Shown piece by piece: positions 5,192-30,582 of a stretch of 38,155 nucleotides of DNA (position 1 is its first letter; each line of letters opens with the position of its first letter). Below the pieces are notes generated by a model. It searched no databases. It was not told where the DNA came from and saw nothing but the letters and a program-made list of their open reading frames with translations. This DNA comes from a virus (lineage: Duplodnaviria > Caudoviricetes). The DNA lies in the IMG/VR virus record IMGVR_UViG_3300042334_000410, positions 1 to 38,155 of that record; one strand, 5' to 3'. A program made the position numbers and the translations under genes.

Positions 5192-5236
5192 GCCTAGCGG
5201 TTGCGAAAGGGGAAGTCGCGCCGCTAGGCTTCTTTT
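5192..5236 (+). terminator. Putative intrinsic terminator at end of late/lysis operon
   Basis: GCCTAGCGG/CCGCTAGGC stem plus inner TGCGA/TCGCG stem, followed by TTCTTTT. Confidence 0.7.
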
Positions 5237-5623: not shown

Positions 5624-6303
5624 CACGAAACTGTGCGCAGTTGTTCCGCCGATTCGCCGCCGCAATGCAAACCTAAACACCGCCACTATTTAATTGGCTT
5701 AGTGCTTTTTATTGCCATCTCTGTCACGCTCTAAATAACGCGTTAATAACCACGTCGGCTTTATCTGATAGGCTGTCCTCATAACTAAATAGACTTCCAG
5801 AAAAACTCGTCCACGCGTACGCGTACAAGTTGAGTAAGTTACGTCACCGTAAATTGATAAATAAATAAGTACCAAAATTAGAGTAACCAAACCGCCCTGC
5901 AATTAATCCTTCGGGACAGTACGCGCGTCTGACCAAATAATTTTGGCATTTAATTCATAGAGAAGGCAAGAATTTGTGGCGCAGTTGTCAGTAGCGCGCC
6001 GCAATTCAATATGTAGCCAGCAAAACTACCAAAGTCCAAACCAGCCAGCACAACGTTACGCAGTACCAGTTAATGGCAGTTGTAACGAATTAGGCAATAG
6101 TTTGGTAATCGCCACGTGACCGAATCGGCGGCGATGTAACACTTTTGGCAAGTTTGTGACCCGCCGTAAAGTTGTAACGGATATCGGACGCGATGACGCA
6201 GAAATGCAGAGCGTGTGACACCGATAGGAAAGTTATTTGATAGCGGCGAAGGACCCAATGGCGAACCAGCCTTAGAACAAACTGACTATGGACAGCAATA
6301 ACT

Positions 6304-6376
6304 TCCGAAATCGCGCCGTCACTAAAAGGCGGCGCGATATAACTATTTGGCGAATAGTTACTGATGAGGACAGCCA
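6304..6376 (+). ncRNA. Hammerhead ribozyme, type II (HH1)
   Basis: UCC-GAAA(6307-10); stem III 6310-20/6328-38; cleavage triplet AUA 6337-39; stem I 6340-47/6353-60; core CUGAUGA 6361-67; stem II GGA 6368-70; loop I UGGC can pair with GCCA 6373-76. Confidence 0.9.
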
Positions 6377-6403
6377 ATCAACTACAAACAAAGGACAGGC
6401 AAA

Positions 6404-6667
6404 ATGGCAATGAGCAAAAAAGACTTCAATCTAATGGCAATTCAATTTGGACAGCAGATGAAGCACATCAACGCAATGGACTATCACCAGCCAATTCGTG
6501 AGATAGCAATGGCAACATTACTTGATTCAATCAAGGCATATTGTTATGTAGCATTTACAGCAAACGGCAATTTTGATTCATCACGTTTTTATGATTTTGT
6601 TGATGAAATCGCAGATGGTCGCCGTGATTCAAGTGGCAAGTTAGTTAAGAAAAGTAAGGCGGCTTAA
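6404..6667 (+). CDS. Hypothetical early protein
   Basis: AAGGACAG RBS motif; 'MSKKDFNLMA...NGNFDSSRF' is a pattern seen in small phage early proteins. Confidence 0.8.
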   Translation: MAMSKKDFNLMAIQFGQQMKHINAMDYHQPIREIAMATLLDSIKAYCYVAFTANGNFDSSRFYDFVDEIADGRRDSSGKLVKKSKAA

Positions 6668-6669
6668 CA

Positions 6670-6810
6670 ATGTATAACGCAGAAGATTTTGACGGCGATT
6701 ATGAAATGGCAATACAAGTAAGCCGCGTAGTAGCGGACAGAACCAAAGGCGAATCAGATTGTTACTGTTCTAATAACACAGTATGCCGTCCGTGTAGCCG
6801 TAATTACTAA
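6670..6810 (+). CDS. Small Cys-rich hypothetical protein (46 aa, not in ORF track)
   Basis: MYNAEDFDGDYEMAIQVSRVVADRTKGESDCYCSNNTVCRPCSRNY; fills the gap; CxC...CxxC. Confidence 0.65.
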   Translation: MYNAEDFDGDYEMAIQVSRVVADRTKGESDCYCSNNTVCRPCSRNY

Positions 6811-6839
6811 ACCAACCAACTAGAAAAGGACAGAAACAA

Positions 6840-7256
6840 ATGGCACTAAATTGGAATATAACAAAATGCAACAATATGGAAGCACTTCAATCAGACACAG
6901 AATGGCCTGTAACTAATGCCGTTATTTGGTCCACTTTGGCTGTAGAGATTGGCGACCTCACAGAAAAAACTGTTAATGAGTTCTACGCAAGAGTTAAATT
7001 GTGGGAAACTGTTAATGGCGCACTTACATATACAAAAGATGGCGCAGATTATTTCATTACGTTAGAAGATTTACGCAAACGTATTGGACTATCAACCAAT
7101 GTAAGCAACTTGCCACGTAACAAATGGCTAAAGCGCATTGAAAGAATCATCGCCGAAAATCAATGGAAAACAACACCGCAATTATCACTCAATGAAATCA
7201 ATGCAATTATCTTCCAAGCACACGTAGAGGCAGAAAAGGAGACAGCAAATGCCTAA
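6840..7256 (+). CDS. Hypothetical early protein
   Basis: AAGGACAG RBS motif; 138-aa ORF. Confidence 0.8.
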   Translation: MALNWNITKCNNMEALQSDTEWPVTNAVIWSTLAVEIGDLTEKTVNEFYARVKLWETVNGALTYTKDGADYFITLEDLRKRIGLSTNVSNLPRNKWLKRIERIIAENQWKTTPQLSLNEINAIIFQAHVEAEKETANA

Positions 7257-7455
7257 GTATCCAAATATCACAGTAACAATGGACTTAGATGGTCCAGATG
7301 GCAACGCGTTCGCAATTATGGGCGCAGTTCAAAAAGCACTACGTAACGCTGGCGCTACTAAAGAAGAACTGGCGCAATACTCAATGGATTCAATGAGTGG
7401 CGATTATGATAACTTAATCGCGGCTCAATCTAAGTGGGTGGCTTTCAATGTCTGA
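7249..7455 (+). CDS. Conserved phage hypothetical protein
   Basis: AAGGAGACAG RBS; 'LDGPDGNAFAIMG...SGDYDNL' is a recurring small phage protein motif. Confidence 0.8.
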   Translation: MPKYPNITVTMDLDGPDGNAFAIMGAVQKALRNAGATKEELAQYSMDSMSGDYDNLIAAQSKWVAFNV

Positions 7456-7588
7456 CACCAAACCAGCACGTAGCGGCACAATTAAGTGTGGTATGTGTGG
7501 CAAATCTGTTGTAATCGGGAAGTGGATAAAGTTGGCTTTTTGTCCTGATTCCAAATGCACTAATAGTGAAGAACGTTATTTGGACTAA
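7448..7588 (+). CDS. Small Zn-ribbon protein (46 aa, not in ORF track)
   Basis: MSDTKPARSGTIKCGMCGKSVVIGKWIKLAFCPDSKCTNSEERYLD; CxxC...CxxxxC; overlaps the upstream stop. Confidence 0.65.
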   Translation: MSDTKPARSGTIKCGMCGKSVVIGKWIKLAFCPDSKCTNSEERYLD

Positions 7589-7677
7589 GCCGAAACGTGC
7601 CAAATGTGTGCAATTGTTTAAGCAACGCACATATTTGGCACGTCTAGTGGTAAATGCCACTACTGACGAGGCTCGTC
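7583..7677 (+). ncRNA. Hammerhead ribozyme, type II (HH2)
   Basis: AGCC-GAAA(7592-95); 17-bp stem III 7595-7611/7627-43; GUC 7642-44; stem I UAGUGG 7645-50/CCACUA 7657-62; core CUGACGA 7663-69; stem II GGCU 7670-73, extendable by GAC 7583-85/GUC 7675-77. Confidence 0.92.
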
Positions 7678-7704
7678 AATGTAAACCAAACAAAGGACAG
7701 AAAA

Positions 7705-8205
7705 ATGACAGAAGCAACAACAACCGAATCAACACCAACAATGCAAGCAACTATGGAACGATTTGTAATGGATAACGATTTGGCAACCGTTATTGAAAGG
7801 CTGGTCAAGCAAGAAGAACGTTTTATTGAACTGGCGCAAGCAAAAGATTCAATCTATACACGCCTTCAAGATGAACGCGCCACAAGCCGTATCAATCGTG
7901 ACACAGTTCGCAACAAGTTCCGTGAAATGTTAGATGGCGATAAAAACGCCACTATTGAAATGGACTTGAGCGACATTAATGAATTACTAGAAGATATTGG
8001 CGCAAGCAGAATTATCTTTACTTATTCTGTTGATGTAACAGTTACAGCCACAATTACCGGAATTGAGGCAGATAGTGAGGAAGATGCACGTGAAAAGGCA
8101 ATTCAAGCACTAGAACTCCGCGTAGATACAGATTCACTTGGCGAGGACGCCAATTGTGAAGATGAAGAATATGACGCCGACAATGCACAGGAAGAGGACA
8201 ACTAA
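7705..8205 (+). CDS. Hypothetical acidic protein
   Basis: Start reassigned to ATG 7705 behind AAAGGACAG; 'IEADSEEDAREKA' motif. Confidence 0.8.
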   Translation: MTEATTTESTPTMQATMERFVMDNDLATVIERLVKQEERFIELAQAKDSIYTRLQDERATSRINRDTVRNKFREMLDGDKNATIEMDLSDINELLEDIGASRIIFTYSVDVTVTATITGIEADSEEDAREKAIQALELRVDTDSLGEDANCEDEEYDADNAQEEDN

Positions 8206-8206
8206 T

Positions 8207-8482
8207 ATGGAACAGGAAACAAATTCATATATCGCTATTCAACCAAATAGCCACTATCACGACGCCGCCTATAACGCAGGACTATGCAAATCAAGCCAGT
8301 ATTTGGTGATTGATTTCTTTTCTTGGGTTAAGTGGTACAACGACGCAAGATTTCAACGCAAGCCATTAGTGCCTACGCCAACATTTAGCGCAGACACTTA
8401 TGAAATTGCCTTGAAAGTAAGAGATGAACTAAACCAAGCCGCAGATAGCGTTTTGGAAACGACAGCAAAGGACAGTAAGTAA
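8207..8482 (+). CDS. Hypothetical protein
   Basis: ATG 8207 behind GAGGAC, directly after the previous stop. Confidence 0.7.
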   Translation: MEQETNSYIAIQPNSHYHDAAYNAGLCKSSQYLVIDFFSWVKWYNDARFQRKPLVPTPTFSADTYEIALKVRDELNQAADSVLETTAKDSK

Positions 8483-8483
8483 T

Positions 8484-9497
8484 ATGGCGCACAATCTAGA
8501 GCAGTTTGAAGATGGCACAACGGCGTTCTTCACAGCACGTGAAGTAGCGTGGCACAAACTAGGCACAGTTACAGATGGCGCACTTAACGCAGAAACAGCG
8601 TTACAGACCGCGCAACTGGATTGGACTGTATTTAAATCGGAAGAGCCAGTTACAACAATGGTTCCAATGTATGGCGATTCGGCTATGGAAGAAGGGTCAA
8701 TGGAAGAAGTTACGCACAAAGACCGCTTTATGACCTATCGCTATCACCCAAAAACAAAGCAAGCGGACGCACTTGGCGTGGTCGGCAATCGTTACACGCC
8801 TGTCCAAAATTCGGACGCGTTCTCGTTTCTTAATTATGTGTCAGATGAATCAGGCGCAGTTTTTGAAACGGCTGGCTCTATTGATAATGGGCGCAAAGTC
8901 TTTATGACAATGAAATTGCCAGATGGACTTAATATCGGCGGCATTGACGCTATTGATATGTATTTAATGGCGTGGAATACGCACGATGGGTCGTCCTCAT
9001 TTAGTGTGGCAGTTACGCCTATTCGTGTTGTATGTCAGAACACTTTAACGGCGGCTTTAAAAGCGGCTAAGAGTAAGTTCTCCGTACGCCACACCGCCTC
9101 ATCTAACGGCAAGATTCAAGCGGCACGTGAGGCACTTGGCATTACGTTTAAGTATGCCGAGGAATTTGAACGTGAGGCAGAATCGCTACTAAGCCAATCA
9201 ATGACGGACAAAGAGTTCGCCAAAATGGTTGAGATGGCTATTCCGCTTAATGACCCTGAATCACCACGTGCCGTCACAATGGCAGAACAAGCACGTGGAA
9301 CGTTGATGGCACTATGGAAAGCGCCAACACAACTCAATGTGGCTAATACAAAGTGGGCGGCATATAACACGTTCGCAGAGTATTCAGATTGGGCTAAGCC
9401 AGTTCGCTCTAAAGATGGCGAAGTGGCACGTGCCGAACGTATCGTGAATGGAAGTGGCGATAGGTTCAAAAACAAGATGTTGGCACTACTTAACTAA
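8484..9497 (+). CDS. DUF932 (TIGR03299 phage/plasmid-like) protein
   Basis: 'AWHKLGT', 'LGVVGNRYTPVQN', 'ETAGSI..GRKVF', 'NTHDGS', 'TPIRVVCQNTL', 'RHT', 'TKWAAYNTFAEY' motifs. Confidence 0.92.
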   Translation: MAHNLEQFEDGTTAFFTAREVAWHKLGTVTDGALNAETALQTAQLDWTVFKSEEPVTTMVPMYGDSAMEEGSMEEVTHKDRFMTYRYHPKTKQADALGVVGNRYTPVQNSDAFSFLNYVSDESGAVFETAGSIDNGRKVFMTMKLPDGLNIGGIDAIDMYLMAWNTHDGSSSFSVAVTPIRVVCQNTLTAALKAAKSKFSVRHTASSNGKIQAAREALGITFKYAEEFEREAESLLSQSMTDKEFAKMVEMAIPLNDPESPRAVTMAEQARGTLMALWKAPTQLNVANTKWAAYNTFAEYSDWAKPVRSKDGEVARAERIVNGSGDRFKNKMLALLN

Positions 9498-9515
9498 CCA
9501 GCCAAACTAACCGAT

Positions 9516-9576
9516 TAGGCGCGTTGGCGCTTTTCTAGTGACACAAAGACACACAGAAAAGTGGCTAACGCGCCTA
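9516..9576 (+). other. Long imperfect intergenic hairpin (processing site or terminator)
   Basis: TAGGCGCGTTGGC/GCTAACGCGCCTA plus GCTTTTCT/AGAAAAGT stems. Confidence 0.65.
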
Positions 9577-9605
9577 TGACGTTCCTATGACGTATCAAGT
9601 AGAAT
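9576..9605 (+). promoter_or_regulatory. Putative sigma70-type promoter overlapped by a direct repeat
   Basis: ATGACG (9576-81)...TAGAAT (9600-05); CCTATGACGT x2 at 9573 and 9584. Confidence 0.4.
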
Positions 9606-9626
9606 CTATCTAGGGGGCAACCACAA

Positions 9627-9854
9627 ATGAGTAATGTTTTAGCAGTTCTATTCGCTACGTTTTTTAGTGGCGCGATTTTGTATTTCATACGTTCAACATA
9701 TCCGTCAGCACATCGCCTAACAGTTCGCGGCAATCGCCTCGTATTTCTCCTGTTGTTAGTAGTCGGCTTTTTTATGGCGGAATTTATTATGCACTTTTAT
9801 ATTAATTGTGACCTAACGCAACCAAATTCGGCGTGCCAAATTGGTTGGATATAG
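9627..9854 (+). CDS. Small membrane protein
   Basis: AGGGGG RBS; two TM helices; 'RLTVRG' motif. Confidence 0.7.
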   Translation: MSNVLAVLFATFFSGAILYFIRSTYPSAHRLTVRGNRLVFLLLLVVGFFMAEFIMHFYINCDLTQPNSACQIGWI

Positions 9855-9917
9855 GCGCAGTTGTTTCAGCCGATGTGCAAGGCGCACACGGCGCAAAGTA
9901 GGAAGGCAAAGCACCAA

Positions 9918-10127
9918 ATGGCAAGAATATACATAAAGGCAATCGTGGCAGTAGATATGCCCGAGCCAAAGGCAACACTAGAAAAGCAAAGCACAAAAGA
10001 ACGTAACGAACAGTTACGCGAATACGCGGCGGAAAGAATTCTTGACGCCTTAACGCTCGCGGAACTAAACCCATCAATACAGAGAATCAATCTCTCCCGA
10101 CCAATAAAGGACAGCACAAATGAGTAA
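9918..10127 (+). CDS. Hypothetical protein
   Basis: ATG 9918 behind GGAAGGC. Confidence 0.7.
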   Translation: MARIYIKAIVAVDMPEPKATLEKQSTKERNEQLREYAAERILDALTLAELNPSIQRINLSRPIKDSTNE

Positions 10128-10929
10128 TAATTCAGCACTCGCGGTAAATTCTGACCAAAACTTTTGGGACGAACAGCAATTAGCGGCACTAAAGCAGATT
10201 GGGCTTATGAACGCGCCAAAGCCTGAACTAGCCGTGTTTCTTCATTACTGCCAGCGAACAGGCTTAGACCCATTCGCACGGCAGATTTATATGATTGAGA
10301 GAGGCGGACGTTACACAATTCAGTCCAGCATTGATGGACTTAGAATCGTGGCGCAACGCTCTAACGAATACGCAGGACAGGCTGGACCGTTTTGGTGTGG
10401 CGATGATGGCGTATGGACGGACGTATGGCTACAACAGACACCGCCAACGGCTGCAAAAGTAGGCGTTATGCGAAAAGGTTTCACAGAAGTTTTGTGGGCT
10501 GTCGCTAAGTTTGAAAGTTATAACGCCAACTCACCAATTTGGAAAAAAATGCCTGACTTAATGATAGCCAAATGTGCCGAGGCGTTAGCGTTACGCAAGG
10601 CGTTTCCAAACGACCTATCAGGCATTTACACGGCAGAGGAAATGGAACAAGCAACGCCAGCGAGCGCGCCAGTTCCACAGCCTGTTGTGGAAATTGTTGA
10701 GGCGGCTCCAAAAACTAGCAAGGCAAATGCGGAACTAACTGTTGATTTACTCAACATTTTAGATGAAGTGGATAAAACCACAACAGTAGAAGCACTAAAG
10801 GCGTTATTTGACCGCCATAAAGTCTATTTAGATTATATGTTTATGTCGCCAGTTCTTGGGCAAGAAATTAATCTACGTATGGCGATTATGGTTCGCAAAA
10901 GCGAATTGGAAGATGGCGCAAATGCTTGA
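10120..10929 (+). CDS. bet: Single-strand annealing recombinase (Bet/RecT family)
   Basis: 'FLHYCQRTGLDPFARQIY', 'SIDGLRIVAQRS', 'WKKMPDLMIAKCAEALALRKAFP'. Confidence 0.92.
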   Translation: MSNNSALAVNSDQNFWDEQQLAALKQIGLMNAPKPELAVFLHYCQRTGLDPFARQIYMIERGGRYTIQSSIDGLRIVAQRSNEYAGQAGPFWCGDDGVWTDVWLQQTPPTAAKVGVMRKGFTEVLWAVAKFESYNANSPIWKKMPDLMIAKCAEALALRKAFPNDLSGIYTAEEMEQATPASAPVPQPVVEIVEAAPKTSKANAELTVDLLNILDEVDKTTTVEALKALFDRHKVYLDYMFMSPVLGQEINLRMAIMVRKSELEDGANA

Positions 10930-11248
10930 TTCTAATTTCCATTGGGAGTTAGATTTTACTGGCGAAACAACGCCTGCGGATAGATTTCAAACGTTCCACG
11001 AACGTAATCCGCAGGTGTTTTCGGCACTTGAATCAATGACTCAAGAGATGTATCAACGTGGGCGCAAACGTATCGGAATTAATATGCTGTTAGAAGTATT
11101 GCGCTGGAATTACTATATGAAAACGGACGACCCAAATTCCGATTTCAAAATCAATAACAATTACGCGCCATATTACGCACGGCTGTTAATTGATAAGCAC
11201 CCCGAATGGTCTGACCTATTCCAACTAAGAGAGATGAGAAGCAAGTGA
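10922..11248 (+). CDS. Conserved phage hypothetical protein
   Basis: 'FHERNPQVF...EVLRW...FKINNNYAPYYARL...FQLR' is a recurring phage family; ATG 10922. Confidence 0.8.
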   Translation: MLDSNFHWELDFTGETTPADRFQTFHERNPQVFSALESMTQEMYQRGRKRIGINMLLEVLRWNYYMKTDDPNSDFKINNNYAPYYARLLIDKHPEWSDLFQLREMRSK

Positions 11249-11481
11249 GCAAAGATATAAATGCAGAGTGGCTGGCGCTGTTAGAAAAACTTAATGGCGG
11301 CACACGTGTTACAACTAGTTCAGTAAAAATTCGTTACAAGGAAGCCAAGCCGTTAATTAATGTGCCACTAGAGGCACTATTTGAGTTATACGGCAATCTA
11401 ATTATGGCTGGCTTTGAAAAGGACGAGGCGTTGATAATCACGTGTTCGGTTATCAAGGACGATAATGAAAGAGCCAGTTAG
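11245..11481 (+). CDS. Hypothetical protein
   Basis: GTGA overlap with upstream gene; 'LIMAGFEKDEAL'. Confidence 0.7.
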   Translation: MSKDINAEWLALLEKLNGGTRVTTSSVKIRYKEAKPLINVPLEALFELYGNLIMAGFEKDEALIITCSVIKDDNERAS

Positions 11482-11584
11482 ATGTTGGTACTGTGGAAAC
11501 TGGAAAATAAACGCCACAGACCAATGTTCGGTGTGTGGCTACGGCGCAAAAGGAATCGCAAATGGTAACGCCACAAGCGATTGA
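11465..11584 (+). CDS. Small Zn-finger protein (39 aa, not in ORF track)
   Basis: AAGGAC RBS; MKEPVRCWYCGNWKINATDQCSVCGYGAKGIANGNATSD with two CxxC. Confidence 0.6.
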   Translation: MKEPVRCWYCGNWKINATDQCSVCGYGAKGIANGNATSD

Positions 11585-11900
11585 GAATCGCCTAGCCAAT
11601 CTAAGCCGAGAAGTTGATGAATCTCATCAGTTTCTAAATGACGCGGAAGTGGCGTATCACGCCGCTAAAGCCACCTATGAAATAGCAATGGCAACATCTA
11701 GGCTGTCATTTGCAGGCGACAAATTAAGAGTTCAGGACGTGCAAGATATAGCGTTACGAGATAACGCACATCTATATCGCGCCTTGAATACCGCCGAAGC
11801 GACAGTAAAGGCGGCACGTGCCAATGCACAACGCATACGCACACAAGTAGATATAGCACGGTCTATCGGAACGTCCGTTAGAGCAAGTTTGGAAATGTAA
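11562..11900 (+). CDS. Coiled-coil hypothetical protein
   Basis: ATG 11562 behind AAGGA; helical composition. Confidence 0.75.
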   Translation: MVTPQAIENRLANLSREVDESHQFLNDAEVAYHAAKATYEIAMATSRLSFAGDKLRVQDVQDIALRDNAHLYRALNTAEATVKAARANAQRIRTQVDIARSIGTSVRASLEM

Positions 11901-11910
11901 AGGACAGAAA

Positions 11911-12144
11911 ATGAAAGTTTCATTTATTAGAACCATAATCGCCAACAAAAAACCTGATTACGAAATTGCTGTAATTTGGTTTGACAAAACGGACGCCGAA
12001 ATGGTTGCCGAAGATGACCTATCGCCTGCCGAATGGAATGCAATCGTTAGAAAATTCTCTGAAAGTAAGCACTTAAATCAAGTAGCCGATGAGTTAATGG
12101 ACGAATTGGTACAAAAAACAATAGACAAAAGGACAGCAAAATGA
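11911..12144 (+). CDS. Hypothetical protein
   Basis: AAGGACAG RBS motif. Confidence 0.75.
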   Translation: MKVSFIRTIIANKKPDYEIAVIWFDKTDAEMVAEDDLSPAEWNAIVRKFSESKHLNQVADELMDELVQKTIDKRTAK

Positions 12145-13046
12145 AAATAGATGAAATGTTAATGAAGGCACTTACGGCGTACGACAATAACCGCGCTCGC
12201 TCTCAGCAAATAGAGATTGGCGTATCACAGATTGGCGGCTGTCGTACACAAGTTTGGTTGCAATTGCAAGACGCCGAACGCACAAACGATACGTTAAAAC
12301 TGCCTGCACTTATGGGTACAGCAATTCATAAGATGATTGAAGAGGCTTTGGCGGCTGATTGGAATGAATTCCAAATGGAACGCGAAGTAGAGTATGACGG
12401 CTTAATGGGTCACATTGATTTATATGTGCCGTCCATTGGCGCCGTTGTAGATTGGAAAACAACCAAGTTAAAGAATTTGGATTATTTTCCAAGTAAGCAA
12501 CAACGTTGGCAAGTTCATTTATACGCCTTTTTACTGTCAAAAAACGCAGAAACCCCAAAGACAGTAACATTAGTTGGCATACCGCGTGACGGCGATGAGC
12601 GACACATAAAAATCCACACGGAAGAATATGACGAGCAAATGGCATTGGACGCGTTGTTGTGGCTGGCTGACGTTAAACAACGTACAGAAGCGCCAGCGCC
12701 TGAACGCCACGCGGCTCAATTTTGCCAACATTATTGTCCATATTTTGGCGATGTTTGTATGGGAAAGGGCAAAGAAGTTAATACGCAAACCATTACAGAT
12801 GACGTGGTGATTGGCGCCGTTGATAAATATATTGAAATATCCGCCGAAATTAAAACGCTAGAAGATAAAAAGGACGGCATTAAAGCGTTACTAGAAAATG
12901 TTGATGGCGTTACGCCAAGTGGCGTGGCTGTTAAATGGTCGCAAGTGGCAGGGCGGTCATCTATTGACGAGCAAGAAGTTCAAAAACTCCTAGGTTATGT
13001 CCCGAAAAAGCAAGGCGACCCTTCTATGCGATTGACGGTGAAATAA
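12141..13046 (+). CDS. PD-(D/E)XK exonuclease (Cas4/RecB-like), partner of Bet
   Basis: 'IGVSQIGGCR', 'GTAIH', 'E...GHIDL...VDWKT', 'QVHLYA', 'FCQHYCPY...C'. Confidence 0.9.
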   Translation: MKIDEMLMKALTAYDNNRARSQQIEIGVSQIGGCRTQVWLQLQDAERTNDTLKLPALMGTAIHKMIEEALAADWNEFQMEREVEYDGLMGHIDLYVPSIGAVVDWKTTKLKNLDYFPSKQQRWQVHLYAFLLSKNAETPKTVTLVGIPRDGDERHIKIHTEEYDEQMALDALLWLADVKQRTEAPAPERHAAQFCQHYCPYFGDVCMGKGKEVNTQTITDDVVIGAVDKYIEISAEIKTLEDKKDGIKALLENVDGVTPSGVAVKWSQVAGRSSIDEQEVQKLLGYVPKKQGDPSMRLTVK

Positions 13047-13891
13047 TGACGTGGGTAAAAATTGACGATTCGTTTCCGAATCACCCAAAGATAGTTGGAC
13101 TAAGTGACAAGGCGTTTCGAATACACATTAGCGGTTTGTGTTATTGCGGCACATACTTAACAGATGGCTTTGTGCCAATGACTATTGCGGCGCGATTTGC
13201 CAATGATGAGATGAAATACATTGTAGAACTAGAGCAGGCTGGCTTATGGCGTGAAGCGTCACAGGATAGTGGCTTCTACATACACGATTACTTGGCACAT
13301 CAAACAAGTAAGACACAGGTGGAAGAGAAGCGCCAAACTGTCAGAGAGAGGCAGAAGCGTTATCGTGAGCGCCACAAAGTCACAGAGGCAGAGCCAGCCG
13401 AATCGGAAGGCGGTGATGACGGCTGGAGTAACGCGTTAGTTACGCCTTCAGAATACAGAATACAGAATACAGATAACAGAACACAGAATACAGAATACAT
13501 AAATACAGAAGAAGAAGAAAACCTTCCTACGCCTAGAAATAAAAGCGCCAAAGTGGCAGTAGAAATAATTGCAAACAAGTTAGCCATAGCAAGAGCAGAT
13601 GGCATTAACGCTTGGAACTTATCCAAATTAGTGGAAGAAGAATGGGATAAGTTACACGCGGCTGATGACATAGGCGGCTGTATTGCACTAACGGCTTGGT
13701 ACGTATCAGAACTTCAATCGCGCCAGTTATCTAGCGCCGAGATTGGGCGTATCGGACAAATGACCAAACGTTTTGGCAGAATTGCGTTACTAGCCATTGA
13801 TGAGGCGGCTAGTAAGGATTTAACCGACTTGGTCAGTTATGCCTTCCGCGTGGCGCAAAATATGTATGCAAGCAAGGCAGGCGCACAATAA
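13046..13891 (+). CDS. Replication initiator / replisome organiser
   Basis: 'MTWVKIDDSFPNHPKI', 'IHDYLAHQ', 'RERQKRYRER' and a low-complexity linker encoded by DNA repeats. Confidence 0.8.
   Translation: MTWVKIDDSFPNHPKIVGLSDKAFRIHISGLCYCGTYLTDGFVPMTIAARFANDEMKYIVELEQAGLWREASQDSGFYIHDYLAHQTSKTQVEEKRQTVRERQKRYRERHKVTEAEPAESEGGDDGWSNALVTPSEYRIQNTDNRTQNTEYINTEEEENLPTPRNKSAKVAVEIIANKLAIARADGINAWNLSKLVEEEWDKLHAADDIGGCIALTAWYVSELQSRQLSSAEIGRIGQMTKRFGRIALLAIDEAASKDLTDLVSYAFRVAQNMYASKAGAQ
13449..13510 (+). repeat. 7-bp tandem repeat (CAGAATA)n, candidate replication-origin iterons
   Basis: CAGAATA x3, CAGATAA, CAGAACA, CAGAATA x2, then CATAAATA-CAGAA. Confidence 0.8.
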
Positions 13892-13949
13892 AAAGTGCGC
13901 AGTTGTTTGTGCCGATAGGCGGCGCAACATTTAACCGAAAGGCAGGCAA

Positions 13950-14228
13950 ATGAAGTTCGTATGCAAAGAAAACCATTGGTCAGTAACAGATGGGCAGTTA
14001 ATTCTTAACACGCCAAATGGCAACGACCAAGAAACCGCCAAAAAAATTATCGCTGTACTGGAAAAACAGATACGCCAGCGTATTTATGACGATATTTGTA
14101 GTTGGGAGCCAATCTCTAATCGCAAACAGATTCTGAAAGTATCAGGGACGATGGATAACGCGCTTTTGGGGGTACAGCACATCTGCGCGAACATAGCGTT
14201 AGGGGAAAAAGATGGCTCTAGCCTGTAA
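13950..14228 (+). CDS. Hypothetical protein
   Basis: GAAAGGCAGG RBS. Confidence 0.75.
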   Translation: MKFVCKENHWSVTDGQLILNTPNGNDQETAKKIIAVLEKQIRQRIYDDICSWEPISNRKQILKVSGTMDNALLGVQHICANIALGEKDGSSL

Positions 14229-14511
14229 GCGCGAGGGCTGTAAATGCAGTCACACAAATTGCGATAACGGCTATATTTTCACCACATATGTAAGCAAAAC
14301 AGAAAATAAAGCCAGAAATGGCGAGAAAATAGTGGTGGAAACCGAATATGAAGGGGTATTATTTTGCCCAGACTGCGACCCAGAAAGGGCGCACATACAA
14401 AGCACGTCCTCATCTAGCGAGGAAATGGCACGCCGCCTTAATGAGCGTAGCCCAATCAAACGAGCAGAAATCTACGAAAAACAAGAAGCCAGCAAAACTC
14501 GGATTCTTTAA
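14212..14511 (+). CDS. Cys-rich hypothetical protein
   Basis: AGGGG RBS; CxxxxCxCxHxxC...CxxC. Confidence 0.75.
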   Translation: MALACKREGCKCSHTNCDNGYIFTTYVSKTENKARNGEKIVVETEYEGVLFCPDCDPERAHIQSTSSSSEEMARRLNERSPIKRAEIYEKQEASKTRIL

Positions 14512-14521
14512 GGAGTAGCAA

Positions 14522-14929
14522 ATGCAAAAACAAAAAATACAACAAATGGCTTTAGTAATGGCTACGGCTTTATTATTGCCAGTAGGAACGTCAGCAGAAG
14601 CCGAAGCGCCACATAAGCCAGTAGAAATTATCTTAACGGCTGAACAGATAGCGGCGCAAAACCCAAAACAATACGCAAAAGACCAATTTACCAAATTTAA
14701 CTGGTCAGATGAACAGATGAGTTGCTTAGGCAAATTATGGGGAAAAGAATCGGCTTGGAATCATTTAGCGGATAATCCGCACAGCACGGCGTTTGGCATA
14801 GCCCAAATGTTAGGCGAAGATTCTCTGCTAGTATCGGTGCAAATTGACAGGGGGTTGCGTTACATTGAACACAGATACGGAAAACCTTGTGTGGCTTGGC
14901 AATTCTGGCAACGTAACAAGTGGTATTGA
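14522..14929 (+). CDS. Lytic transglycosylase (SLT-like) with N-terminal signal/TM segment
   Basis: 'CLGKLWGKESAWN...NPHSTAFGIAQ...QIDRGLRYIEHRYGKPCVAWQFWQRNKWY'. Confidence 0.9.
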   Translation: MQKQKIQQMALVMATALLLPVGTSAEAEAPHKPVEIILTAEQIAAQNPKQYAKDQFTKFNWSDEQMSCLGKLWGKESAWNHLADNPHSTAFGIAQMLGEDSLLVSVQIDRGLRYIEHRYGKPCVAWQFWQRNKWY

Positions 14930-15383
14930 AAAATCTTTTTTTGTTAAAGGTAAGCCAGTATCGCAAGGCTCTTTAAAGTTTATTAAGGGTCACGCCATAC
15001 ACGTTAAAGGTCGTGAGTTGGCGTTATGGCGCGGCACTATTGCGGCTATGGCGCGTTCAACAAACATCACAAAAATACAGGTCGGCGTAGATATGGAGTT
15101 GCTGTTTGTTTTTAACAGACCAAAAACTGTTAAACGTGATGAGCCGTACGTGCGTCCTGATTTGGATAAATTAATTCGCGCTGTTCTTGATGGCTTAACT
15201 GGCGTTGCTTATGAAGATGACCAGCAAGTTGTGCGCTTAACGGCGCAAAAGGCGTATGGCGAAACAGAAGGCGTACACATTAAAATTAGCGAGCGCCTAT
15301 CAAGCGGTATTCGCCCAAGTAAAGATTTCGTTACTGGCGCCGTCCAACGGATTAATAAAAGCCTCAACAGAAACACCGATTAA
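14889..15383 (+). CDS. rusA: RusA-family Holliday junction resolvase (start uncertain)
   Basis: 'GKPVSQGS', 'RPDLDKLIRAVLDGLTGVAYEDDQQVV'. Confidence 0.88.
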   Translation: MWLGNSGNVTSGIEKSFFVKGKPVSQGSLKFIKGHAIHVKGRELALWRGTIAAMARSTNITKIQVGVDMELLFVFNRPKTVKRDEPYVRPDLDKLIRAVLDGLTGVAYEDDQQVVRLTAQKAYGETEGVHIKISERLSSGIRPSKDFVTGAVQRINKSLNRNTD

Positions 15384-15412
15384 GCCACCTACTTGCTCAT
15401 AAAGGACAGTAA

Positions 15413-15763
15413 ATGACAGATTGGACGGCTCTACGTGAGGCAGTTCTTGCACGGTGCCAAAACTACTGTGAGTTATGCGGTAACGCACTTACAGACACGT
15501 TTGCACTACATCATCGCAAACTTAAATCACGTGGCGGCAAAGACACCATAGATAACTTAATTGCGTTACATCACGCCTGCCACAATATGGGTAATAACGC
15601 CGTACATCTAAACGTGCAAAAAGCCACAGCAAGCGGACATATGGTTCCCACATACGCCACGCCGTCTGCCTATCCATTACTTTTGCCTAACGGTTCTCTT
15701 GTTACACTTAGCGAGGAAGGCACATACATTTACTTAGAGAAGGCGGACAAAGATGGCTGGTGA
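15413..15763 (+). CDS. HNH endonuclease
   Basis: 'CELCG...LHHRKLKSRGGKDTIDNLIALHHACH'; AAGGACAG RBS. Confidence 0.88.
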   Translation: MTDWTALREAVLARCQNYCELCGNALTDTFALHHRKLKSRGGKDTIDNLIALHHACHNMGNNAVHLNVQKATASGHMVPTYATPSAYPLLLPNGSLVTLSEEGTYIYLEKADKDGW

Positions 15764-16133
15764 AGGCGTTATAACAGTTACAGGTAATATCGGCAACGAT
15801 TTCGGAATTGCATTTACACAAAGCAATAAAGCATATGCAAAGTTTTCGTTGGCAAATACGCCACGCATTAAGAAAGATGATGTTTGGCAAGATGGCGTTA
15901 CAACTTGGTTTAATTGCACAATTTGGGGACGTGACGCGGAAGTTGCAGTAGAACATCTACGTAAAGGCGCTCGCGTAATCGTTACAGGTCGCTTTGCAGC
16001 AAACGCGTACACAGATAAAGAAGGCAAAGAACGCACATCATTGGACATTAGTGTTGATAGTTACGGCGTAGTGCCACGCAACACAAATAATGCGCCAGTT
16101 ACAACCGAAACAGCAAACGACCCTTGGGCTTAG
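15753..16133 (+). CDS. ssb: Single-stranded DNA-binding protein
   Basis: 'ITVTGNI', 'WFNCTIWG..AE', 'LRKGARVIVTGR', 'YTDKEGKERTS', C-terminal DPWA. Confidence 0.93.
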   Translation: MAGEGVITVTGNIGNDFGIAFTQSNKAYAKFSLANTPRIKKDDVWQDGVTTWFNCTIWGRDAEVAVEHLRKGARVIVTGRFAANAYTDKEGKERTSLDISVDSYGVVPRNTNNAPVTTETANDPWA

Positions 16134-16144
16134 AAAGGCACACA

Positions 16145-16330
16145 ATGGAAAATGTAATTGATTCAGATAAGGCGGCAGAATTGTTAGGCATTACAAAAAA
16201 CAATTTGCGACAATTGGTTTACCGGAAACTGCTTGTCCCTGTCGGCAAGCAGAAACGGCGTTCTCTATTTAACGTAGAGGACGTTGCGAAGGTAAAAGAA
16301 GCCCGTAAGCCGTCGGTCCCTTCGGCTTAA
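16145..16330 (+). CDS. Helix-turn-helix DNA-binding protein (MerR/excisionase-like)
   Basis: 'DKAAELLGITKNNLRQLVYRKLL...RSLFNVEDV'; ATG 16145 behind GAAAGGC. Confidence 0.85.
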   Translation: MENVIDSDKAAELLGITKNNLRQLVYRKLLVPVGKQKRRSLFNVEDVAKVKEARKPSVPSA

Positions 16331-16340
16331 CTGTGGCTCG

Positions 16341-16380
16341 GAGAGAGTGCAGGCACCTGTCCTGCCTGTACTCTCTCTTT
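16341..16380 (+). terminator. Hairpin (terminator-like / candidate 3'-end sRNA) with loop CCTGTCC
   Basis: 15-bp stem GAGAGAGTGCAGGCA/TGCCTGTACTCTCTC, 7-nt loop, then TTTACATTT. Confidence 0.7.
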
Positions 16381-16400
16381 ACATTTATAGAGAGGCAAAA

Positions 16401-16943
16401 ATGGAAAAATTAAAGATGGAAACCATTTCAATTGATGACTTGGCGCTTGACCCTAATAACGCACGTAAGCACAGCGAAAAAAACATTAATGCAATTTGCG
16501 AATCGTTAAAACAATTTGGGCAACGTAAGCCAATTGTTATAAATGCAGAAGATATTGTTGTTGCAGGTAACGGCACAGTAGAAGCGGCGCGGCGAATAGG
16601 ACTTAAAGCGTTAGATGTTGTGCGTTTGCCTGCCGATTGGTCGGAAGAAAAAATTAAGGCGTATGCGCTCGCGGACAACCGCACGGCTGAATTGGCAAGT
16701 TGGGACGCCGAGATATTGCTATCGCAACTTAATGAGTTAAATATTGCCGATTGGGATATTAACGCACTCGGCTTTAAAGAGTTTGAACTTAATCCGTTAA
16801 AGGATTCGGACGCCGATACAGATATGAAAGATTTAGGCGAACGTTACGAAGTTGTAATTGAGTGTGCTGACGAAAACGAACAGACGGCACTACTTTTGCG
16901 CTTGTCGCAAGACGGCTTAAAAGTACGCGCCATCATTATCTAG
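16401..16943 (+). CDS. ParB/Srx N-terminal domain protein
   Basis: 'DPNNARKH', 'SLKQFGQRKPIVI', 'VVAGNGT..AA', 'LADNRTAELASWD'; ATG 16401 behind GAGAGG. Confidence 0.9.
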   Translation: MEKLKMETISIDDLALDPNNARKHSEKNINAICESLKQFGQRKPIVINAEDIVVAGNGTVEAARRIGLKALDVVRLPADWSEEKIKAYALADNRTAELASWDAEILLSQLNELNIADWDINALGFKEFELNPLKDSDADTDMKDLGERYEVVIECADENEQTALLLRLSQDGLKVRAIII

Positions 16944-16944
16944 G

Positions 16945-17042
16945 ATTAGGGTTAAACCTAATACGTCAGCGAAACATAAGTAGTTGGCGTGAGTGCTGGA
17001 CGTAGCCCTTACGGCGTTAAAACTGTAAGGGTGAAGTTCGGC
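16945..17042 (+). ncRNA. Candidate structured cis-regulatory RNA (three consecutive hairpins)
   Basis: ATTAGG/CCTAAT; ACGTCAGC/GTTGGCGT; GCTGGAC-gtag-CCCTTACGG/CTGTAAGGG-tgaa-GTTCGGC; many G-U pairs that work only on the + strand. Confidence 0.55.
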
Positions 17043-17059
17043 TAACGAGAGAGGCAAAT

Positions 17060-18193
17060 ATGGGTAAAGTAATCCGCCTAGAAAGTGCAATCACGCGGAC
17101 GCCACGTGTAATGCAACTTGAAGGCTTGTTTGATATGGATTCAGAGGCACGTTCCATTACAAATATTGAAATGAATATTCCTGATTTAAGCACACGTGAT
17201 TGGAATATCGGTCTTATTGTTGGACCATCAGGCGCTGGCAAAACAACCGTTGCCAACGATTTGTTTCCTGACAAAATGCGAAGCACAGAAAATATGAAGT
17301 GGTCTAAAGATAAGGCAATCATTGATGATTTTCCGCAAGATTTGCCTATGCGCGAAGTTACCGAATTGTTATCATCTGTCGGCTTTAGTTCGCCGCCTGC
17401 GTGGTTGCGCCCATTTCACGCACTAAGTAACGGCGAGCAGTTTCGTGTAACGATTGCACGTGTGCTGGCAGAAAATCAGGACTTGTCTGTTGTAGATGAA
17501 TTCACGTCCGTTATTGACCGCACAGTTGCACAAATCGGCTCATATGCAATTGCCAATACTGTTAGAAAACGCAATCAGAAGTTTGTTGCTGTTGGCTGCC
17601 ACTATGACATACAAGAGTGGTTACAGCCCGATTGGATTTACGAGCCACATACTGGCACCTTTACTTGGGGGTCGGTTCAACCCCGACCACAAGTTAAAAT
17701 TGAAATCATATGGGCAAAGTATGAATCGTGGAACACGTTCGCACGTCATCACTATCTAGACACAAAACTAAACAAAACGGCGCACATCTACGTTGGGTTA
17801 ATTAACGACCAGCCAGCGTGCATAAGCGCGATTTTGCCGTTGCCAAATGCTCACGTGCGTAACGCTCGGCGGTTTAGCCGTAACGTTGTGCTTCCTGACT
17901 TTCAAGGCATTGGATTAGGCAAATACTTTCACGAACGTATTGCGGCTGGACTTATTGCACAGGGCTTGGCTGTCTATGCAACTGCCAGCCACCCAACGCA
18001 GATACATCATCTCAACAAATCGCCAAACTGGGAACTTATTCGTATGCCGTCAAGAGTAGCCAAACAAGGCAAAACAAGTTCACTATCGTCACGAATGGGC
18101 GTCAGCAGAGCGCGCCTAACAAGTTCCTTTCGCTTTAGGGGAGAACCTGATTACGAAGTTGCGAAGATATTAGCGCCACTTCCTAAGAAATAA
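17060..18193 (+). CDS. ABC-type ATPase fused to GNAT (Mom-like) acetyltransferase; putative DNA-modification enzyme
   Basis: Walker A GPSGAGKTT, signature LSNGEQFR, Walker B VVDEFTS, H-loop VGCHYD; GNAT 'FARHHYL', 'SRNVVLPDFQGIGLG'. Confidence 0.88.
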   Translation: MGKVIRLESAITRTPRVMQLEGLFDMDSEARSITNIEMNIPDLSTRDWNIGLIVGPSGAGKTTVANDLFPDKMRSTENMKWSKDKAIIDDFPQDLPMREVTELLSSVGFSSPPAWLRPFHALSNGEQFRVTIARVLAENQDLSVVDEFTSVIDRTVAQIGSYAIANTVRKRNQKFVAVGCHYDIQEWLQPDWIYEPHTGTFTWGSVQPRPQVKIEIIWAKYESWNTFARHHYLDTKLNKTAHIYVGLINDQPACISAILPLPNAHVRNARRFSRNVVLPDFQGIGLGKYFHERIAAGLIAQGLAVYATASHPTQIHHLNKSPNWELIRMPSRVAKQGKTSSLSSRMGVSRARLTSSFRFRGEPDYEVAKILAPLPKK

Positions 18194-30534: not shown

Positions 30535-30543
30535 TTCGTCAAG

Positions 30544-30582
30544 AAGGGTGGCGCGTCATATAGTGGGCGCGCCACCTTTTTT
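30544..30582 (+). terminator. Intrinsic terminator after capsid operon
   Basis: GGTGGCGCGTC/GGCGCGCCACC stem followed by TTTTTT. Confidence 0.88.

Follow-up and report, generated by a model that had tools for sequence, protein, structure and literature searches.

In phage T4 the RegA repressor is a protein that shuts down early messages at their translation-initiation regions. The RegB endoribonuclease of T4, also a protein, shuts early messages down via these regions (PMC3014915). RNA seeds complementary to the Shine-Dalgarno (SD) sequence and displayed in loops are established for cuckoo and RNAIII (PMC4615179) and for RepG (PMC8295292). As described for Alphaproteobacteria, cuckoo or CcsR (RSs0680, alpha-r14) comprises two to four adjacent hairpins with compensating, variable stems and anti-SD-like motifs in the loops (PMC4615179). 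In cluster K mycobacteriophages, a 13-bp asymmetric motif termed SAS lies a few nucleotides before many non-structural genes and combines an SD core with bases that 16S rRNA cannot explain; it is present as a single reverse copy in four genomes, some SAS have upstream inverted repeats, and the description leaves open whether they are RNA or protein sites (PMC3203893).

The locus compared with these systems here lies in the genome of a tailed phage, a near-complete 38-kb record with a 148-nt terminal repeat; we refer to the whole analysed stretch of 38,155 nt as the window. All genes of the window lie on one strand. Those between 6404 and 16330 encode unknown proteins, DUF932, RecT, an exonuclease, a replication initiator, RusA, HNH, ssb (15753..16133, plus strand; Pfam SSB) and a Xis/MerR-like HTH protein (16145..16330, plus strand; Pfam HTH_17, PHROG 4691/2474), and 3′ of the HTH gene come a ParB-like gene and then terminase, portal, capsid, tail and lysis genes. 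The labels early and late used below were inferred from this gene content. The parB-like gene, the first past the element, starts at 16401 and has the ribosome binding site (RBS) AGAGAGG at 16389..16395 (plus strand). Together with an ABC-ATPase/acetyltransferase-like gene it fills 16401-18193, between the element and terminase, a variable cassette in which relatives have other genes and which may serve DNA modification; a hairpin with an A-rich loop lies between the parB-like and the ABC/acetyltransferase-like genes (17005-17032, plus strand) and is also present in relative G002. A search of 50,697 phage records turned up no cultured relative, and GTDB genomes gave no prophage, only one weak 15-residue match. 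The sole named cellular match of the SSB is to the actinobacterium Dermabacter (E 3e-18), which makes an actinobacterial host a weak guess.

Two stem-loops mark the junction between these gene sets. Hairpin 2 (16340..16378, plus strand), supported by folding and covariation and the probable 3′ end of an ssb-hth transcript, has 16 pairs, including two G-U, around the loop CCUGUCC at 16356-16362, and its predicted free energy alone is -28.0 kcal/mol. The preliminary description had given a 15-bp stem presenting the loop CCUGUCC followed by U. Hairpin and loop are borne out by our analysis, but 15 bp is right only without the terminal G-U pair, the element is longer than described, with hairpin 1 preceding, and the U belongs to the closing A-U pair rather than being free. 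Loop and closing U (16356..16363, plus strand) are complementary to AGGACAG(G); the loop is predicted to be fully unpaired and the U 13% unpaired, and since the U sits in the closing pair only six of the seven seed bases are free in the loop. Hairpin 1 (16300..16338, plus strand), likewise supported by folding and covariation, overlaps the last HTH codons and the stop codon, and its loop (16313-16322, UCGGUCCCUU) ends in UCCCUU, the complement of AAGGGA; in the window this loop has no early target of 7 nt and is predicted to be partly closed. Folded together, the two hairpins give z = -5.9, with none of 200 shuffles as stable, and a fold is likewise predicted for the reverse strand (z -4.5). 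At the gathering score Rfam has no match in the window, the element included, and the best matches within 16200-16450 are to miRNA hairpin models (E 0.8). A 9-bp hairpin inside the HTH gene (16229-16252, plus strand; also in G001) repeats part of the seed in its loop, CCUGUC, which may be a coding coincidence.

That the loop is the reverse complement of AGGACAG at eight early starts, as first described, was confirmed by motif counts and start positions. The two strands together contain 12 copies of AGGACAG against 2.33 expected (0/100 shuffles reach this), and eight copies, all on the plus strand and each within AAAGGACAG, lie 3-8 nt 5′ of a start codon. They precede the first early gene, whose tag (6392..6398; start 6404, 87 aa, no family) forms an 8-nt match to the loop, three other genes without a recognised family (6827..6833, start 6840, 138 aa; 7694..7700, start 7705, 166 aa; 11901..11907, start 11911, 77 aa), and the genes for DUF932 (8469..8475, start 8484), RecT (10108..10114, start 10120), the PD-(D/E)XK exonuclease (12130..12136, start 12141) and HNH (15403..15409, start 15413). 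The remaining four copies are loop 2 itself, one in the interior of recT (10374), one in a hammerhead-like RNA (6367) and a reverse copy at 5773. Pairing of at least 6 nt with either loop is found at 8/25 early leaders and 0/34 late leaders of the window. The tagged leaders are predicted to be nearly unfolded (0 to -2.8 kcal/mol), and loop-tag duplexes calculated for free strands, without loop strain, reach -9 to -12 kcal/mol; the untagged leaders at 13950 and 26854 reach -8.8 kcal/mol with the loop seed. The probability that a given short loop is complementary to the top leader 7-mers is roughly 5 in 10,000 by an arithmetic estimate, which makes a chance match unlikely in this genome alone. 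Other uses of these sequences were considered and set aside: no small ORF with a suitably spaced start uses the reverse-strand AGGACAG as an RBS in the window or the relatives checked, and in place of one long target site the longest complements are 8-13 nt, mostly at leaders.

Like cuckoo as described, the element has adjacent hairpins with variable stems (two in one sub-family of relatives, A, and one in the other, B) and anti-SD loops; unlike the fixed CCUCCUCCC loops of that bacterial RNA, the phage loops vary and track a private early-leader tag (PMC4615179). The motif CCUCCUCCC is in none of the loops compared in the window or its relatives. In the account of RepG from Helicobacter pylori, the terminal hairpin likewise has a C/U-rich loop that serves as the seed for an mRNA leader; RepG is, however, a stand-alone host sRNA with a long loop and one target operon carrying a G-repeat (PMC8295292), whereas the phage seeds measure 6-10 nt and match as many as about ten leaders in a genome. 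A UCCC-type motif that pairs with SD regions is shared with RNAIII and RsaE of S. aureus (PMC4615179) and, from a 3′ UTR, with icaR, which differs in acting on its own 5′ UTR (PMC3868564); all three are host systems without a co-evolving set of tags. What is found here of anti-SD sRNAs is a seed predicted to lie in a stable loop of the sense strand and RBS complementarity that is kept through sequence change. As with SAS, the tag is an asymmetric repeat placed just before non-structural starts only, but the SAS consensus GGGATAGGAGCCC is absent, the shared leader motif here being AAAGGACAG, and the description of SAS mentions no antisense hairpin in the part bearing on the motif (PMC3203893).

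Relatives were collected with ParB, HTH and SSB searches, which gave 93 distinct HTH contexts, five of them weak, unrelated HTHs; the 88 family contexts include the window, and many are near-identical. An exact-pattern scan of viral contigs returned 42 matches, from which only those in known relatives were used. A hairpin lies 3′ of the HTH gene in 86/88 family contexts: 54 (sub-family A) have two hairpins, with loop 1 missing in L167, 32 (sub-family B) have a single long one, two of these being cut by contig ends, and two relatives (L304 and L307) have none. With the structures derived from the same sequences, a bias in their favour, covariation in sub-family A was 0.46 against 0.21 in shuffled controls (0/500) and no more than 0.16 in slid controls, with two-sided changes in 17/22 pairs and, for hairpin 2 in 47 relatives, in 11/12 pairs; in sub-family B it was 0.44 against 0.29 shuffled, with two-sided changes in 14/17 pairs. 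The loops remain C/U-rich as the stems turn over. A model of the sub-family A element finds a single copy in each sub-family A genome, the window included, and matches no sub-family B hairpin; homology between A and B thus rests on position and resemblance.

The preliminary description had proposed asking whether the loop co-varies with the dominant RBS motif in related phages, and across relatives the loop and the early-leader tag do change together. Every relative examined with AGGACAG leaders has a CUGUCC loop, so that the loop variation at constant tag named at the outset as evidence against the idea is absent, and other tags go with other, matching loops. The co-varying tags are GGACAG, AGGGACA, AGGGAT, GTTAGGG, GAAGGGTA and GAAAGGGTA. 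CUGUCC loops and AGGACAG leaders are combined in the window, G001, G002 and L269; the loop UUGUCCCUU goes with leaders AAGGGACAA in G003 and G012, ACCCUAAC with GTTAGGG at two genes in G004, G010 and L251, loop 1 UUUAUCCCUU with leaders AAGGGATAA in G005 and G022, and UUACCCUUC with leaders GAAGGGTAA in sub-family B. Where loop 2 has drifted, in L210, loop 1 UUUAUCCCUU matches six AGGGATA leaders. Within sub-family B the loops of two relatives differ by a one-base indel: L220 has CCCUUUC and, on the sense strand, three GAAAGGGTA tags and no GAAGGGTA, L231 has CCCUUC with seven GAAGGGTA tags and one GAAAGGGTA, and in L222 the tags are mixed.

Leaders were then chosen without reference to the loop, as the first ATG or GTG with an upstream purine triplet, a rule that takes in some spurious ORFs. 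Across 38 loci, with five weak HTH matches, two hairpin-less loci and loci with less than 7 kb upstream left out, pairing of at least 7 nt with the genome's own loops is found at 167/906 early and 1/354 late leaders, against 88 early leaders with foreign loops; none of 20,000 permutations, which ignore the kinship of the genomes, reaches 167, and sub-family A alone gives 120 against 83 +/- 8. Among 21 near-complete genomes (G030, which has no lysin, was left out) the same threshold gives 129/561 early against 3/617 late leaders, and foreign loops give 66 early and 5.6/617 late; at 8 nt the counts are 70 early and 0 late, against 23 with foreign loops. Since late leaders avoid foreign loops too, their escape is not specific to the genome's own loops. 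For five motifs, chosen after inspection of the data, tag and matching loop occur together in the 38 genomes as follows: GGACAG in 4, GTTAGGG in 3, AGGGTA in 12, AGGGAC in 5 and AGGGAT in 10, and in 0/38 genomes are there two or more leaders with any of these motifs but no complement in a loop. The tree offers one to six independent pairs per motif, of which about one or two are concordant and 0-0.1 discordant, the rest being ties, and none is significant.

The agreement has exceptions. In G001, the nearest complete relative, and in L006, L007 and L011, a C at the seventh base leaves six pairs, and 1/22 early leaders of G001 pairs at 7 nt. Loop 2 is not anti-SD in 5/54 sub-family A contexts (L237, L230, L210, L159 and L264), all of which keep the UCCCUU loop 1; hairpin 2 of L264 (2647-2680 of that contig) has an SD-like loop, AUGGGAAG, complementary to its own loop 1. 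The common tags AGGGAGA and AGGGAAA match with a 6-nt core only, the complement of AGGGAC is present in 14 genomes of which only five have two such leaders, and five genomes have leaders with the 7-mer AGGGATA but not its full complement. Taken as a whole, the comparative evidence for pairing between loop and leader is strong, though not kinship-proof.

Because loop and tag have changed together in relatives, we moderately favour a reading in which the hairpin, the second of two conserved stem-loops, is part of an RNA that likely pairs in trans with the eight tagged early RBSs and would lower their translation. Transcription from a promoter-like site at 15700 would yield a short ssb-hth RNA that ends in the element, whose stable stems would keep the C/U-rich loops open as seeds. 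By covering the GGA of the SD together with the spacer, pairing with a tagged leader would keep the 30S subunit off and might lead to degradation of the message. The accumulating transcript would damp the earliest and the recombination genes (DUF932, RecT, exonuclease, HNH and four unknowns), and late genes, with other types of RBS, would escape. Such a shut-down would act at initiation regions as those by RegB and RegA do, but these are proteins, and no RegB- or RegA-like protein was recognised among the early genes of the window. The 'RNA-only early-to-late switch' proposed at first is too strong a term, because only 8/25 early leaders are matched and the gene for a Xis/MerR-like DNA-binding protein adjoins the element.

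An unlikely alternative is that the pairing is real and its outcome another: it may activate, stabilise or direct processing of the tagged messages, or take place in cis within one long early transcript, in the manner of icaR. All the comparative evidence bears on pairing and none on its sign. RepG is described as repressing or activating depending on the target (PMC8295292), and the icaR 3′ UTR as pairing with its own SD (PMC3868564). Against a different outcome, pairing involves the GGA core and spacer, the place of 30S binding. Pairing in cis is favoured by the arrangement of 6404-16330, where all genes share one strand and no U-rich terminator between them equals hairpin 2 in strength; promoter-like sites before ssb and, in sub-family B, before the hairpin would, however, make the RNA apart from most of its targets. 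The first of these is a conserved extended -10-like sequence, TG-T-TACACT, in the 3′ end of the HNH gene 5′ of ssb (15700..15708, plus strand); TGTTANACT has a single copy in the window, at this site. The pattern TGnTAnnnT, which we take to be the extended -10 promoter consensus, lies about 50 nt 5′ of ssb, inside the HNH coding sequence, in 65/78 loci. A promoter at 15700-15708 is suggested because the Val codon in the site is fixed as GTT (76/78 loci) while the neighbouring codon is free among five; in eight genes of the window GTT makes up 124/242 Val codons. The RNA predicted from here spans ssb and hth, has the hairpins at its end and measures roughly 665 nt. In sub-family B, TRTGnTAnnnT is found 3-25 nt 3′ of the HTH stop in 9/9 near-complete genomes and in 0/13 sub-family A genomes; as this promoter-like site directly precedes the hairpin, the sub-family B RNA would start at the hairpin. 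No sigma-70-type site is conserved directly 5′ of the hairpins in sub-family A. RNA contigs of related strains, from two shallow small-share runs of one study, cover parts of ssb and hth, and none extends over 16241-16582.

Distinctly less probable is that tag and loop are copies of one protein site, either a double-stranded DNA operator, for instance of the adjacent HTH protein, or an opposite-strand decoy for an RNA-binding repressor or RegB-like nuclease. A shift in protein specificity would also alter both sites jointly, the hairpin always lies 3′ of a Xis/MerR-like HTH gene, and the reverse strand folds as well; the SAS of cluster K, too, include single reverse copies and are left open as RNA or protein sites in their description (PMC3203893). 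An operator, however, needs neither a fixed distance of 3-8 nt to the start codon nor a co-varying stem of 12-20 bp at the sole reverse copy, and lineages that differ in their tags share the same HTH core residues. The strand that folds also speaks against a protein site: at interior wobble positions of 50 distinct stems a strand-symmetric count gives 34 G-U against 3 A-C on the sense strand, so that the sense RNA appears to be the folded strand, showing the antisense sequence.

We consider it improbable that the element is an ordinary terminator or 3′-end stabiliser at the early/late border, its likeness to the tag being due to shared ancestry, local copying or chance. Its position and short U-rich tail (UUUACAUUU) fit, and hairpin 2 passes a terminator scan, which returned 20 sites in total against 18.5 by chance; hairpin 2 may also terminate transcription, a role that may well coexist with an anti-SD role, and some loops match no tag. 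The loop of a terminator needs no particular sequence, however, and these loops stay C/U-rich and track at least five tags, down to a one-base indel; the GGACAG loop and tag occur in two lineages that are non-sister on a six-protein tree. Very unlikely indeed is a switch in cis with the parB RBS AGAGAGG sequestered by the 3′ arm CUCUCU, two sequences whose pairing the preliminary description had also offered: they are complementary in the window and in L002, its identical twin, but L003-L009, with 89-94% ParB identity, keep the arm and have GAAAGG instead, the downstream gene differs between relatives, and the -28 kcal/mol stem would have to open.

The window has other structures besides. A type II hammerhead-like ribozyme (6303-6379, plus strand) is directly 5′ of the first early RBS; it scores 28.4 bits (E 4e-4) against Rfam RF02276, below the gathering score of 37, and G004 has two RF02276 copies above gathering (L140 8040-8114 and 9064-9126). 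The hammerhead-like layout with a fixed ACTAAAA loop is present in 13/22 near-complete genomes. Cleavage is predicted near 6339, and a pseudoknot of the kind described in PMC3088659 could arise between loop I and the 3′ tail. A 26-nt inverted repeat, 85% complementary (5766-5791 and 6355-6380), has the hammerhead core as its right arm and in a longer transcript would prevent ribozyme activity; it is kept in 0/3 relatives checked (G001, G003 and G004). A cluster of GTTAC/GTAAC-like repeats (6050-6225), possibly operators or an origin, lies in the 780-nt non-coding region 5′ of the early genes, and two early intergenic stretches look structured (6720-6805, and 7588-7652, a long hairpin) with no meaningful Rfam match. 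Downstream of the major capsid gene there is a 15-bp hairpin (30541-30582, plus strand) whose loop, UCAUAUAGUGGG, is the same or close in G001, G004 and G007. At the end of the late operon, 3′ of the holin gene, a hairpin (5192-5230, plus strand) keeps an SD-like GGGGA(AG) loop on variable stems in 12/13 sub-family A genomes (besides the window G001, G003, G004, G005, G019, G022-G026 and G029), and is not at that place in the 8/8 sub-family B genomes with lysin, where loop 1 is also missing. This loop could pair over 5-6 nt with UCCCUU of loop 1, as a sponge or kissing partner.

A wider scheme, which we put forward only as an unlikely extension, would be an RNA-only address code. Each lineage would carry a private SD extension on chosen early genes and a matching loop as key at the early/late junction, the two diverging together, so that a phage would silence its own early regulon and that of co-infecting phages only if they bear the same tag; the 5′ hammerhead would open the early message, the late-end GGGGAAG sponge would reset the key, and the loop would be the missing partner of the mycobacteriophage SAS.

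In the open-access full-text literature we found no report of an RNA by which a phage targets a group of its own early RBSs. The natural and orthogonal pairs of loop and tag (GGACAG, GTTAGGG, GAAGGGTA and GAAAGGGTA) are material for swaps and for compact parts for translational control. The element also gives a direct test for SAS, unexplained since 2011, namely whether its reverse copy lies in a hairpin loop. If repression by the loop is true, these phages would have a protein-free alternative to the protein-based shut-off of early phage genes at the level of translation.
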